From a virus (taxonomy: Duplodnaviria > Heunggongvirae > Uroviricota > Caudoviricetes), in the IMG/VR virus record IMGVR_UViG_2585427971_000006: 38,221 nucleotides of DNA. One strand, 5' to 3'. The notes beneath the pieces were generated by a model. It searched no databases. It was given only the letters and a program-made list of their open reading frames with translations, and was not told where the DNA came from. Below, in pieces: positions 32,817-36,487 of the stretch. Position 1 is the stretch's first letter. Each line of letters begins with the position of its first letter. Both the position numbers and the translations under genes were made by a program.

Positions 32817-35194
32817 ATGGCAGCAGTAAAAATCTCAGGTGTGCTGAAAGATGGTGCGGGAAAACCAATACAGAACTGCACTATTCAACTGAAGGCAAAG
32901 CGTAACAGCACCACGGTACTGGTGAACACGGTGGCTTCTGAAAATCCGGATGAAGCCGGACGTTACAGCATGGATGTTGAGCATGGTCAGTACAGCGTCA
33001 CCCTGCTGGTTGAAGGTTTTCCGCCTTCACATGCCGGGACCATTACCGTCTATGAAGGTTCCAGACCAGGTACGCTGAATGATTTTCTCGGTGCCATGAC
33101 GGAGGATGATGTCCGACCGGAGGCACTGCGCCGCTTTGAGCAGATGGTGGAAGAAGCGGCACGCAACGCTGAAGCCGCCTCTCAGAGCGCAGCGGCGGCA
33201 AAGAAATCCGAAACTGCAGCGGCATCATCGAAGAACGCGGCGAAAACCTCAGAAACGAATGCAGCTAACAGCGCACAGGCGGCAGCGACCTCAAAGACTG
33301 CATCGGCAAACTCCGCGACAGCAGCCAAAAAATCAGAAACCAACGCGAAAAATAGCGAGACAGCCGCAAAGACGAGCGAAACCAACGCAAAGTCCAGCCA
33401 GACGGCAGCGAAAACCAGCGAAACGAATGCCAAAGCCAGTGAAACTGCGGCAAAAACAGCCAGGTTGCAGCAGCCCAAAGCGAGAGCGCGGCAGCCGGTT
33501 CTGCGACTTCAGCAGCTGGATCAGCAACTGCTGCGGCTAACAGCCGGAAAGCTGCGAAGACGAGTGAAACTAACGCAAAGTCCAGCCAGACGGCAGCGAA
33601 GACCAGCGAAACGAATGCCAAAGCCAGCGAAACTGCGGCGAAAAACAGTCAGGATGCAGCAGCCCAAAGCGAGAGTGCTGCAGCTGGTTCTGCAAGCGCG
33701 GCGGCTGCTTCTGCCACTGCATCAGCCAACAGTCAAAAAGCAGCAAAAACCAGTGAAACCAATGCAAAGACAAGCGAGACTGCAGCGGCGAACTCGGCGA
33801 AAGCATCCGCTGCAAGCCAGACCGCTGCAAAAGCAAGTGAAGACGCAGCCAGAGAGTATGCAAGCCAGGCAGCAGATCCGTATAAATATGTCTTACAGCC
33901 GCTGCCTGATGTGTGGATACCGTTTAACGATTCACTGGATATGATTACGGGCTTTTCGCCATCATATAAAAAGATTGTTATTGGTGACGACGAAATAACG
34001 ATGCCTGGCGACAAGATTGTTAAGTTTAAACGTGCATCGAAAGCAACCTATATTAACAAATCTGGTGTGCTGACAGAGGCTGCCATTGATGAGCCACGAT
34101 TTGAACGTGATGGCCTGCTTATTGAGGGGCAAAGAACTAATCTTCTGCTTAATTCAACAAATCCATCTAAATGGAATAAGTCAGGCAATCTGGAACTCAC
34201 AGAAATATCCACGGATTCTTTTAATTTTACTTATGGGAGATTTACTGTAAAAGATACTCTTATTGGTCAGACAAGTGCTATTAATATCGTAACGATTTCT
34301 GGCAGTAAAGGGTTTGATGTCACAGGTGATGAAAAATATGTGACCATTTCATGCCGTGTAAGAAGTGATGTTGAAAATATAAGGTGTCGTTTAAGATTTG
34401 AACACCATGATGGTTATACTTACACTTTTTTGGGAGATGCTTACCTCAATTTATCAACACTTGTAATTGATAAAACTGGTACTGCTGCAGACCGTATTAT
34501 TGCAAAGGCTGTAAAAGATGAGGTTACTGGTTGGATTTTCTATCAGGCTACAATTAATGCACTAGATACAGAGAGCATGATTGGTGCGATGGTTCAATAC
34601 GCTCCTGTAAAAGGTTCAGGTACAGCATCTGGAGACTATCTGGATATCGCAACTCCACAAGTGGAAGGTGGATCAAGTGCTTCGTCATTTATTGTAACTG
34701 ATATAACTGCAAGCACTCGCGCAAGCGATATGGTGACAGTCCCAATCAAGAATAACCTTTATAATCTTCCTTTTACGGTTCTTTGTGAGGTACATAAGAA
34801 CTGGTATAAAACGCCAAATGCAGCACCGCGTGTTTTTGATACCGGCGGTCATCAAACCGGAGCGGCTATTATTCTTGGCTTCGGTCGTTCAACAGATTAC
34901 GACGGATTTCCTTATTGTGATATAGGTTTGGCTAACAGACGGGTAAACGAAAACGCATCGCTTGAAAAAATGGTTATGGGGATGCGTGTAAAGTCAGATC
35001 AGTCTACGTGCTCAGTAAGTAACGGGCGTATATCCAGCGAAAAGAAAGCCACATGGTCCTATATTCAGAACTCCGCAATTATCCGTATTGGAGGCCAGAC
35101 TACAGCCGGGTTGCGTCATTTATTTGGTCATGTCAGGAATTTCAGAATATGGCACAAGGCATTGACTGATGCTCAGATGGGGGAGTCAATCTAA
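32817..35194 (+). pseudogene. side tail fibre (stf-like) interrupted by a 1-nt frame change in an A-run inside a tandem repeat; C-terminal LamG-like domain
   Basis: N-terminus MAAVKISGVLKDGAGKPIQNCTIQLKAKRNSTTVLVNTV matches lambda Stf from memory; frame 0 is fibre-like to about 33455 and then becomes Arg/Gln-rich nonsense, while frame 2 is open from 33443 to 35194 and continues the KTSETNAK repeats (codon-by-codon check, no stops); second repeat copy has one more A at the equivalent position. Confidence 0.6.
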
Positions 35195-35475
35195 TGAAAG
35201 ATTTAACACTCAAATTTGCAGACAGGGCCGACTTTTCGGCCTTTATGGATAGCATTGGCTATTATGATGACGAGTCGATGCAGGATGATATTCTTATTGA
35301 CGTGATAGGTAACGTGTACAAAGAAACCGGAGAACTGACTGAAGATGGCGAACCGGTATGTGTTAAGGAAGATGGATATTATGTAAACGTGCGCATCATT
35401 AATGATGCAAAAAAATCGTCAATATTCGATGAATACGCGGTTGTAGTTGAACATCAACTTCGTGGCTGGATGTGA
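35194..35475 (+). CDS. small acidic protein (93 aa) after the fibre gene
   Basis: Track ORF; start overlaps the stf stop (TAATG); no family recognised. Confidence 0.5.
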   Translation: MKDLTLKFADRADFSAFMDSIGYYDDESMQDDILIDVIGNVYKETGELTEDGEPVCVKEDGYYVNVRIINDAKKSSIFDEYAVVVEHQLRGWM

Positions 35476-35484
35476 GGGAGACAA

Positions 35485-36189
35485 ATGGCTACATCGACAG
35501 TAATTCCAGGAGACATCACCACGTTAAAGGGAGATGTCAGTAAAGCCAAGGAAGATATTTCCTCAATTAACGGAAAAGTATCAACGCTTCAGGCTGATAT
35601 GACCAGTGCAAAGCAGGATATCAGCACCAGATACACAAAAACTGAAGTTGATAATAAGCTGAAAAACAAACTGGAAGTGAACGCTCTGGAAAGCGGTCGT
35701 TATGGTGGAGATTTTTACCCGTTGACTGGCCGTGAAGCGTTTTATTTGTGGGGATTGGGCACGACTACAGCGGCGGCAAACCTTTATCTTAATCCTGACC
35801 CCGCAATTTCGTCTGTGCTGCGGTCAACATCGTCTATCCGCTATAAACATTCAGTAGAGACAATAGATTCAGAGCACGCCGATCTCATTTTCAGGATGCG
35901 CCCTGTGTGGTACAGGTCACAATGCGAAAATGACAGGCGTGACTGGGGATTCTACGGATTGATTGCCGAGGAAGTAGGAGAAATTGCCCCTCAGTTTGTA
36001 CACTGGCGACCAGCTAACGAAGATGATGCACCGGAAGCTATTTCCAGCAATGGCCTTGTTGCCGAAGGTGTAATGTACGAACGTCTGGTTGTTCCACTGA
36101 TTCACCATATCCAGAAGCTGACTGAAAGAGTTGATGAACTTGAGTCAGAATTAAAGTTGTTATCCGTTTCCCGAAGCGATATCGGATAA
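35485..36189 (+). CDS. short tail-fibre-like protein with C-terminal intramolecular chaperone (peptidase S74-like) domain (234 aa)
   Basis: GAGGGAG RBS; N-terminal coiled-coil heptads; C-terminal SSIRYKHSVETIDSEHADLIFRMRPVWYRSQ...GLIAEEVGEIAPQFV...GVMYERLVVPLIHHIQKL fits the endosialidase-chaperone pattern from memory. Confidence 0.6.
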   Translation: MATSTVIPGDITTLKGDVSKAKEDISSINGKVSTLQADMTSAKQDISTRYTKTEVDNKLKNKLEVNALESGRYGGDFYPLTGREAFYLWGLGTTTAAANLYLNPDPAISSVLRSTSSIRYKHSVETIDSEHADLIFRMRPVWYRSQCENDRRDWGFYGLIAEEVGEIAPQFVHWRPANEDDAPEAISSNGLVAEGVMYERLVVPLIHHIQKLTERVDELESELKLLSVSRSDIG

Positions 36190-36199
36190 AGGAGGAGTA

Positions 36200-36487
36200 A
36201 TGGATATAAGCCCCTTACTTCATGCACTTTGTGCTGTGGCTGCGCAAACACTGGTTGGTCTTTTTACCGGAAACTGGGCTTACGGAGCGATAGCCGGTTG
36301 TACGTTCTTCATTGCGCGTGAACACACCCAGGCAGAATATCGCTGGATCGAAATGTTCGGGCATGGCAAGCGAATGAATATGCCGTGGTGGGGCGGTTTT
36401 GATCCGCGCGCGTGGGATGTGACAAGCCTGATGGATTTTGCTGTGCCGGTGGTGGCGTGTCTGCTGATCTGGATGTTGATCCGTTAA
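36200..36487 (+). CDS. small membrane protein (95 aa), accessory
   Basis: AAAGGAGG RBS 4 nt before ATG; hydrophobic N- and C-terminal segments; last phage-side gene before the att site. Confidence 0.5.
   Translation: MDISPLLHALCAVAAQTLVGLFTGNWAYGAIAGCTFFIAREHTQAEYRWIEMFGHGKRMNMPWWGGFDPRAWDVTSLMDFAVPVVACLLIWMLIR

Follow-up and report, generated by a model that had tools for sequence, protein, structure and literature searches.

Genes following the side tail fibre gene in a lambdoid ST131 prophage of Escherichia coli: a probable two-part fibre module and a candidate membrane accessory protein

Introduction

What is encoded by the three small genes that separate the side tail fibre gene of a lambdoid prophage from its right attachment site: cargo of the prophage end or parts of the virion? 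This question is raised by IMGVR_UViG_2585427971_000006, a stretch of 38,221 nucleotides (nt), hereafter called the window, that corresponds to the right-hand 37 kb of a lambdoid prophage of Escherichia coli of sequence type 131 (ST131). In this window, the side tail fibre gene stf is followed by orf93, orf234 and orf95. The first-pass annotation of this DNA had read the whole trio as cargo, such as receptor-modifying, exclusion or defence genes. Our analysis suggests that this reading fails for orf93 and orf234, which appear to be fibre parts of a lateral-fibre module also found in virulent phages, whereas it fits orf95, a candidate prophage accessory gene. The explanation that we favour, and that we hold as a whole to be moderately probable, is that the trio consists of two units brought together by recombination: (i) the head of stf, orf93 and orf234, which would form a two-part lateral tail fibre whose proximal, lectin-headed component is Stf, and (ii) orf95, whose product would not belong to the virion but would act in the host envelope, at the cytoplasmic face of the inner membrane. 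The features of the locus are the following (positions are those of the window; aa, amino acids):

32817..35194, + strand: stf, side tail fibre gene, frameshifted in the window
35194-35475, + strand: orf93, 93 aa, ATG start
35485-36189, + strand: orf234, 234 aa
35830..36189, + strand: Peptidase_S74 part of orf234 (aa 116-234), from Pfam PF13884 and the alignment with PDB 8hqz_d
36200-36487, + strand: orf95, 95 aa
36488..36839, no strand: non-coding right prophage end, with an imperfect hairpin at about 36493-36535 and no canonical terminator
36840..36901, + strand: attR core, displaced 3' fragment of tRNA-Ser (serU locus), with chromosomal DNA up to zinT beyond

Organization of the locus

The three open reading frames (ORFs) were recovered exactly as first delimited, each behind a strong ribosome-binding site. 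The ATG of orf93 overlaps the stop codon of stf (TAATG) and is preceded by GGGGGAG; orf234 follows after a 9-nt gap with the strong Shine-Dalgarno sequence GAGGGAG upstream, and orf95 after a 10-nt gap with another strong one, AAAGGAGGAG. A promoter and terminator scan of positions 34800-37600 showed nothing above chance on the + strand. The trio does stand in place of tfa, as the first-pass annotation had noticed, a Pfam profile search having found no Caudo_TAP-type gene. That orf95 lies just before the att site was also correct: the junction between prophage and chromosome is position 36840, inside tRNA-Ser and 352 nt past the stop codon of orf95. The prophage-free K-12 and BL21 chromosomes align from exactly 36840, where tRNA-Ser is annotated, and the 3' fragment of the tRNA ends at 36901. 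ARAGORN found no complete tRNA at this right junction, and the tRNA fragment was the sole match of an Rfam scan of positions 36400-37600.

From position 35100 to 36900, the window shows 100% identity with EC958, JJ1886 and many further ST131 genomes, and the whole trio is found at ~92% nucleotide identity in phages IdasGreatGrand and PhiR49_1. Pairwise ratios of nonsynonymous to synonymous substitution rates (dN/dS) range from 0.14 to 0.43 across orf93, orf234 and orf95. Since the trio is conserved in other phages and these ratios are low, the three genes are not chance ORFs, and their sequences indicate purifying selection on all of them. The possibility that they are unexpressed remnants without conserved domains, considered at the outset, does not hold at the family level, given these ratios and the S74 domain of orf234.

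The fibre module formed by stf, orf93 and orf234

The N-terminus of Stf is of the lambda type (Pfam phage_tail_N, E = 6.6e-68). It is followed by a repeat shaft, then by a C-terminal lectin-like head (LamG/ConA, GTA head-spike-like) that ends in ..VRNFRIWHKALTDAQMGESI. The family phrog_1419 spans both halves of stf, and the head matches NCBIfam GTA_spike_fiber (E = 3e-16) and, weakly, Laminin_G_3. The final 149 aa of Stf were found in 205 phage records, whose taxon spectrum is that of the orf93 family. The proximal fibres encoded at orf93 loci have unrelated N-termini and all end in ..RNFRIW..LTD.Q...

The product of orf93 is indeed acidic, with an isoelectric point of 4.17 and 21 D+E versus 9 K+R. 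It belongs to phrog_1361 (phrog_18574 is the second-best PHROG), has dN/dS values of 0.20-0.38 and has relatives in 186 phage records (tblastn). Beyond lambdoid phages, this family occurs in virulent Dhillonvirus (KarlBarth), Queuovirinae (ESCO3, JenP2, VogelGryff, KurtStettler), ~50-kb siphoviruses (tunus, swan01, KarlJaspers), T5-like phages (IrisVonRoten and others) and rV5-like myoviruses (EmilHeitz, nomo, FFH2). The orf93 homologue lies directly 3' of a lateral fibre gene at all loci that were opened, and the hits of orf93 and of the last 149 aa of Stf had neighbouring coordinates in every case inspected. Furthermore, Lambda_2E9 and EmilHeitz have kept orf93 although no distal fibre gene comes next, which links orf93 to the head and not to the distal fibre. 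Neither orf93 nor any of 10 members of its family was matched by Pfam or NCBIfam, with hits admitted up to E = 5, no relative was found among PDB sequences in a search that included the family-alignment profile, and the 338 family members are all named 'hypothetical' or 'prophage protein' in databases. For want of a Pfam or NCBIfam match, membership of Tfa/Caudo_TAP by sequence was rejected. The placement of orf93 is nevertheless tfa-like, since the gene comes right behind the fibre gene and is inherited together with the fibre tip. Considering its linkage to the head and its translational coupling to stf, orf93 probably encodes an assembly factor or an accessory subunit of the lectin-like head, in place of Tfa.

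The coiled-coil N-terminus and the chaperone domain that had been attributed to orf234 were both found again. Pfam Peptidase_S74 (PF13884) matches it with 27.3 bits for a gathering cut-off of 22 (E = 4.4e-6), residues 116-172 covering model positions 1-57 of 58, and residues 109-222 align with the chaperone end of LtfA from phage DT57C (PDB 8hqz_d, E = 5.5e-7). The motif S116-S-I-R-Y-K121 is intact and is aligned to TSGIEYK of LtfA. By analogy with endosialidases (S-[DS]-x-R-x-K at the start of the domain), Ser116 (codon 35830-35832) and Lys121 (codon 35845-35847) are predicted to be the catalytic dyad. Upstream of this C-terminal domain, aa 11-52 form six clean heptads (ITTLKGD, VSKAKED, ISSINGK, VSTLQAD, MTSAKQD and ISTRYTK), and weak matches to the trimeric coiled coil of P22 gp26 and to the Lpp zipper were obtained. 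The protein thus comprises an N-terminal docking motif, MATSTVIPGDITTLKGD (first ~17 residues), the six heptads, a ~50-aa tip and the chaperone, so that the passenger of the S74 domain is unusually short. Its dN/dS values are 0.15-0.26. The predicted self-cleavage would leave a mature protein of ~12.5 kDa (aa 1 to ~116), i.e. a very short rod that could be a receptor binder or a mere fibre cap.

The docking motif links orf234 to distal fibres. The pattern M[AV]T[SK]TVIPxDITxLK is common to orf234 and to proteins of Tritos (346 aa), ESCO3 (351 aa) and PhiR55_1 (227 aa); it also heads IrisVonRoten gp24 (574 aa) and KarlBarth gp30, and a looser version is found in VogelGryff gp24. The genes bearing this motif sit directly after the orf93 homologue. 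orf234 probably encodes a minimal distal or branch fibre, its docking and its autocleavage being predictions.

This module is carried by strictly virulent phages belonging to Nonagvirus (ESCO3), Seuratvirus (VogelGryff), Dhillonvirus (KarlBarth), Tequintavirus (IrisVonRoten) and the rV5-like group (EmilHeitz). Megablast comparisons located the points at which it has been recombined. ESCO3 matches positions 35100-35544, a block made of the end of stf, the whole of orf93 and 20 codons from the start of orf234. This same block and orf95 are matched by Tritos, 2G7b and HannyBb, in which the body of orf234 is not, and the match of PhiR55_1 begins at 35548. The breakpoints therefore lie around codon 20 of orf234, right after the docking motif, and at the ribosome-binding site of orf95, which gives the layout [head + orf93 + docking segment], [fibre body + chaperone] and [orf95].

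Two-protein and branched lateral fibres have been genetically established in DT57C (PMC4728585). In IrisVonRoten, gp24 is described as a 'T-shaped' distal fibre with a C-terminal chaperone and is modelled as joined to gp22, the proximal fibre, which in the model has a protruding galectin-like head (PMC11990801). We found that gp23, encoded between gp22 and gp24, is an orf93 homologue (39% identity). On this basis, a mechanism can be proposed for the first unit. The product of orf93, translated in step with Stf, would act on the Stf head as an assembly factor or a retained accessory subunit and would thus be a functional counterpart of lambda Tfa without kinship to it. The product of orf234 would trimerise through its heptad coiled coil, aided by the C-terminal S74 chaperone, which would then cut itself off at Ser116. 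The resulting rod of ~116 residues would dock by its conserved N-terminus on the distal end of Stf and provide a short second or branch tip.

orf95 and its genomic contexts

orf95 encodes a small protein with hydrophobic segments at both ends. Structure prediction, which had been advised for the whole trio, was informative for this protein and failed for orf93, whose single-sequence model was unusable (mean predicted local distance difference test score, pLDDT, of 51). The AlphaFold2 model of orf95, built with an alignment, has helices at residues 4-23, 26-53 and 74-94 (mean pLDDT 93.5); this predicted three-helix fold can be considered confident, topology and loop orientation being deduced separately. 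In the family, K+R residues number 5.6 on average in loop 40-73 and about 0 elsewhere, from which the positive-inside rule would place the N-terminus and the conserved loop in the cytoplasm. The loop carries an invariant motif, AREHTQAEYRWI...GKRxNMPWWGGFDxRxW, and 24 columns are invariant in 37 sequences down to 57% identity. Among these columns are H8 and Q16 in helix 1, the segment R40-E41-(H42)-T43-Q44-A45-E46-Y47-R48-W49-I50, the loop run M61-P62-(W63-W64)-G65-G66-F67-D68, and D79 and P83 in helix 3.

The family to which orf95 belongs, phrog_1443, is of unknown function in PHROGs. It is large, with 575 clusters when grouped at 90% identity and, at 50%, 442 representative clusters whose members all have ~90-130 aa, and 70 loci were found in species-representative genomes of Gamma-, Beta- and Alphaproteobacteria and of Desulfovibrio. 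Neither Pfam applied to ten longer or more distant members nor a search of PDB sequences with the orf95 alignment profile gave any match. PADLOC returned nothing for orf93 or orf95 and, for orf234, only a chance-level CorA-like match (E = 0.017), and NCBIfam was likewise uninformative for the trio; a literature search with the RefSeq protein accessions of the trio retrieved no papers, and those on Tai, Tab and SieA proved unrelated to orf95. Several candidate identities of orf95 were considered and rejected: (i) a holin, since orf95 lacks a charged tail (it ends in a membrane helix and 1-2 residues) and the lysis cassette lies elsewhere; (ii) a lipoprotein of the Cor/Llp type, since there is no lipobox (H-A-L-C11 is unfit and Cys11 is not conserved); (iii) a GtrA-type conversion protein, for lack of a Pfam match; and (iv) an obligate partner of S74 genes, since orf95 also occurs directly after orf93 and behind tailspike genes, tfa or J.

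Indeed, the genes preceding orf95 are diverse. In lambdoid phages, it follows the S74 mini-fibre gene or directly the orf93 homologue. In the P22-like Gally and 611R6, it is found after the tailspike gene, in the conversion-gene locus next to int, and in 611R6 beside an O-acetylase gene. In Gally, it lies behind a strong terminator with a 9-bp stem (locus L013, 3289-3309) followed by 190 nt of AT-rich DNA with a promoter-like site, so that in P22-like phages orf95 would form its own transcription unit. It comes after tfa in phiHAP-1, after a P2-type fibre gene in an Aeromonas prophage, and after tailspike genes in Citrobacter and Desulfovibrio; in Comamonas, a giant J-like protein and then a 72-aa ORF come before it. 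In the alphaproteobacterium Chelativorans (locus L045, 4526-6285), an orf95 homologue overlaps by 4 nt the gene that precedes it, which encodes a lectin-head tail protein belonging to phrog_5939. In two Comamonas loci (L039 and L047, 5432-6306), orf95 is preceded by a gene encoding a 188-aa protein whose N-terminus matches phrog_18574. The Chelativorans and Comamonas loci hint at an older link of head, orf93-like domain and orf95. The full head and orf93 module was restricted to Escherichia-type lambdoid loci in a local profile scan of 77 orf95 loci, and orf95 is absent from the inspected virulent phages of E. coli that bear the fibre module.

In 611R6, a short ORF annotated 'tail fiber protein' just upstream of orf95 (locus L014, 3279-3455) matches the C-terminal end of the S74 chaperone (E = 6e-16), 37 aa of this gene end having been kept there. 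This remnant is a recombination scar, which shows that the 3' part of an S74 fibre gene travelled along with orf95. Stand-alone chromosomal copies of orf95 with no phage genes nearby were also detected, in sphingomonads (L083, L085, L071), Aeromonas rivipollensis (L007) and Leclercia (L028-L032). Their neighbours are housekeeping genes such as pirin, a metE-like gene, ligA or cda, to which further loci of alphaproteobacteria add pnp and cfa. The orf95 family thus has cellular members.

The idea that orf95 is cargo survives because the gene is independent of the type of upstream receptor-binding protein, belongs to the conversion locus of P22-like phages, deviates in G+C content (52.8% versus 40-46% for the genes of the fibre module) and has chromosomal copies. 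Like a moron, orf95 is present or absent among otherwise related phages and has a deviating composition. orf95 is probably an accessory gene that hitch-hikes with the receptor-binding cassettes of temperate sipho-, podo- and myoviruses and whose product acts at the host inner membrane. Our best guess for its mechanism is a superinfection-exclusion type of protection, which would shield the lysogen or the infected cell at the level of the inner membrane, for instance by keeping out the genome of a superinfecting phage; we know of no exclusion phenotype for this protein. A role in general envelope physiology, favoured by the chromosomal homologues, is nearly as likely. A late lytic role ranks third; it is favoured by the tight coupling to late genes in lambdoid phages and by the lack of an own promoter in the window.

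State of the prophage and neighbouring genes

The features located upstream of the fibre module are the following:

10954-12684: complete lysis cassette (P21-type holin 10954-11274, lysozyme 11693-12226, Rz)
27979-31374: J
31442-32041: lom
32238-32696, + strand: IS200C tnpA, between lom and stf (RefSeq annotation of EC958 and ORF), also present in EC958

Two genes of the prophage are broken by comparison with EC958. In stf, alignment revealed a 1-nt deletion near position 33452 in a run of six A (A5 here, A6 in EC958), which generates the ORFs 32787-33944 and 33911-35194; stf of EC958 is intact and encodes 792 aa. The major capsid gene (18253-19337) has a 133-nt internal out-of-frame deletion near position 18530, relative to the intact 1218-nt coding sequence of EC958, and is split into the ORFs 18253-18546 and 18543-19337. 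The homopolymer frameshift in stf could reflect a real pseudogene or a sequencing error. Unless the two lesions are assembly errors, the prophage would make neither virions nor side fibres, since a fibre module accompanied by broken capsid and stf genes cannot build virions. If the lesions are real, orf93 and orf234 are functionless passengers here and only orf95 could still matter to the cell. The IS200C element, located upstream of the fibre module, could also hamper, by polarity, the late transcription of stf and of the trio.

Within the lysis cassette, a DUF1327 gene (11279-11629) lies between the P21-type holin and lysozyme genes. Genes for tRNA-Met(CAT) (8804-8879) and tRNA-Arg(TCT) (8980-9054) are located upstream of this cassette, as in many lambdoid and Stx-type phages. 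A hyper-motility screen of EC958 by transposon-directed insertion-site sequencing (PMC5425062) includes, among its unconfirmed hits, EC958_2136 ('phage related tail fiber protein') and EC958_2149 ('phage DNA packaging protein'); the locus-tag numbers suggest that both may map to this prophage.

Alternative explanations

It is highly improbable that all three genes are prophage-end cargo unrelated to virion structure. They do sit between the fibre gene and attR, and neither orf93 nor orf95 has an annotated function. However, orf93 and an orf234-type gene are found in the same order in strictly virulent phages, which do not lysogenise; the TAATG overlap couples orf93 to stf, orf234 qualifies as a bona fide fibre protein of the S74 type, and PADLOC detected no match for the trio beyond chance level. 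Another explanation concerns orf234 alone: it could be a trans-acting chaperone for the trimerisation of Stf, which has no chaperone domain, its N-terminus being a transient tether. The names given to its homologues in deposited genomes ('putative lateral tail fiber chaperone' or 'chaperone of endosialidase') agree with such a role, as does the size of the mature protein, just ~116 aa, half of which is coiled coil. We nonetheless regard it as improbable. To our knowledge, S74 chaperones act in cis on their own chain, according to work on endosialidase and T5 pb1, which counts against this explanation. Moreover, Lambda_2E9 and EmilHeitz have lectin-headed fibres and orf93 without any S74 gene, so the head needs none, and the N-terminal motif of orf234 also heads long distal fibres with clear receptor-binding domains (IrisVonRoten gp24, 574 aa; PMC11990801).

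For orf95, one may consider that it is a lytic-cycle part of the receptor-binding cluster, expressed late with the tail genes, which would block injection by progeny or superinfecting phage into the dying cell, tune envelope or lysis, or serve as a flank for cassette exchange. In lambdoid phages, phiHAP-1, the P2-like prophage of Aeromonas, Desulfovibrio and Chelativorans, orf95 indeed overlaps the late gene before it or starts within 0-40 nt of its end, it has no promoter of its own in the window, recombination breakpoints map to its ribosome-binding site, and in 611R6 the remnant of the S74 end travels with it. This proposal is rather unlikely, though, in view of the P22-like phages, where the tailspike terminator precedes orf95, which there has an AT-rich upstream region of its own and conversion genes as neighbours, of the non-phage chromosomal copies, and of the lack of orf95 in the inspected virulent phages of E. 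coli with the same fibre module. A possibility of broader scope, although still a doubtful one, is that the trio is here an inert leftover of a decaying prophage, whose ORFs are intact because the decay is recent. The capsid deletion, the stf frameshift and the IS200C insertion upstream of the trio point in this direction. On the other hand, many ST131 genomes carry these ORFs with 100% identity, their families are under purifying selection, orf95 is independent of virion production, and the homopolymer frameshift may be a sequencing error.

Several results also weigh against the two-unit explanation that we favour. The prophage is defective, and a function of orf93 and orf234 in this genome is doubtful. 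Mature orf234 is very short and may be a cap or a vestige instead of a receptor binder, and records of the BASEL genomes call its homologues a 'putative lateral tail fiber chaperone'. orf93 may be a chaperone, an adaptor or a virion subunit, the evidence favouring none of the three. Concerning orf95, searches of Pfam, NCBIfam and PADLOC gave no match, fold searches were uninformative, and the chromosomal homologues argue for a general cellular function over phage exclusion. A few partial homologues occur in ~235-kb Aeromonas phages and in a 154-kb Cobetia phage. Finally, in the window, no + strand promoter-like site or terminator was found around orf95, which starts only 10 nt after orf234; in lambdoid phages, orf95 probably shares the transcription of the late tail genes, unlike a classical moron.

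Comparison with known systems

The closest systems are the two-protein fibres of T5-like phages (DT57C LtfA/LtfB, PMC4728585, PMC10713586; IrisVonRoten gp22-gp23-gp24, PMC11990801). As in the window, a proximal fibre is followed by a distal one with a short conserved N-terminal dock and an S74 end. The likeness with IrisVonRoten extends to the order of the three genes, the head ending in ..IRNFRIWHKELTD.., the orf93 homologue gp23 and the N-terminal motif of the distal fibre, MVTKTVIPTDITKLK. Unlike these fibres, the proximal fibre of the window has a lambda Stf N-terminus, and its distal fibre is only 234 aa long, with no recognisable receptor-binding domain; besides, DT57C LtfA has its own S74 domain whereas Stf of the window has none. 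The small middle protein is not discussed in the papers on T5-like fibres (PMC4728585, PMC10713586, PMC11990801).

As in the K1F endosialidase and T5 pb1, the chaperone of orf234 (PF13884) is a C-terminal domain with S-x-x-R-x-K at its start and a C-terminal helix. In contrast, its passenger has ~115 residues, compared to ~800-1200 for the spike or fibre of these proteins, and its autocleavage is a prediction. The pair formed by stf and orf93 recalls lambda Stf-Tfa: orf93 likewise follows stf directly, and its linkage to one type of fibre tip is strict. However, it has no sequence relationship with Tfa (194 aa in lambda), is half its size, and its partner is a lectin-like head and not a tip of the lambda/T4 gp37 type.

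Like the superinfection-exclusion proteins HK97 gp15, T4 Imm and P22 SieA (PMC3594210, PMC10883804), orf95 is a small inner-membrane protein of phage origin, its gene being placed by temperate phages inside their tail gene region or at its end, and its layout in P22-like phages is moron-like. It differs from these proteins by the absence of any sequence or fold similarity found, by its chromosomal homologues and by its very high conservation across Proteobacteria. The receptor-blocking lipoproteins T5 Llp and Cor of phi80 and N15 are also encoded beside a receptor-binding gene, but orf95, unlike them, has no lipobox, has three membrane helices and a conserved loop predicted to be cytoplasmic, and its sequence is independent of the type of the upstream receptor-binding protein.

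Implications

The S74 mini-fibre and the two-part fibre architecture were already known, whereas neither the role of the partner of 93 aa nor the orf95 family as a whole has been described, although both proteins are present without a name in hundreds of genomes. This work does not overturn current ideas, and the locus is mostly an ordinary, though unannotated, fibre module. A more far-reaching outcome is possible but tentative: orf95 would found an undescribed family of inner-membrane proteins ensuring a broad, receptor-independent block to genome entry or another protection of the envelope and, separately, orf93 may define a new class of chaperones or adaptors for fibre tips, restricted to lateral fibres with a lectin head.

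Lateral-fibre modules set the O-antigen or capsule types that a phage can reach and are swapped in host-range engineering. If lectin-headed fibres always need the 93-aa partner, this partner must move with the fibre head. Furthermore, the first 20 codons of orf234 appear to be both the docking segment and the recombination handle of the second fibre, which would provide rules for the design of chimeric fibres. As for orf95, it is widespread, strongly conserved and unnamed, travels with receptor-binding genes and is present in a prophage of the pandemic ST131 lineage, which would make it a cheap and well-defined target for a phage-challenge or envelope screen.

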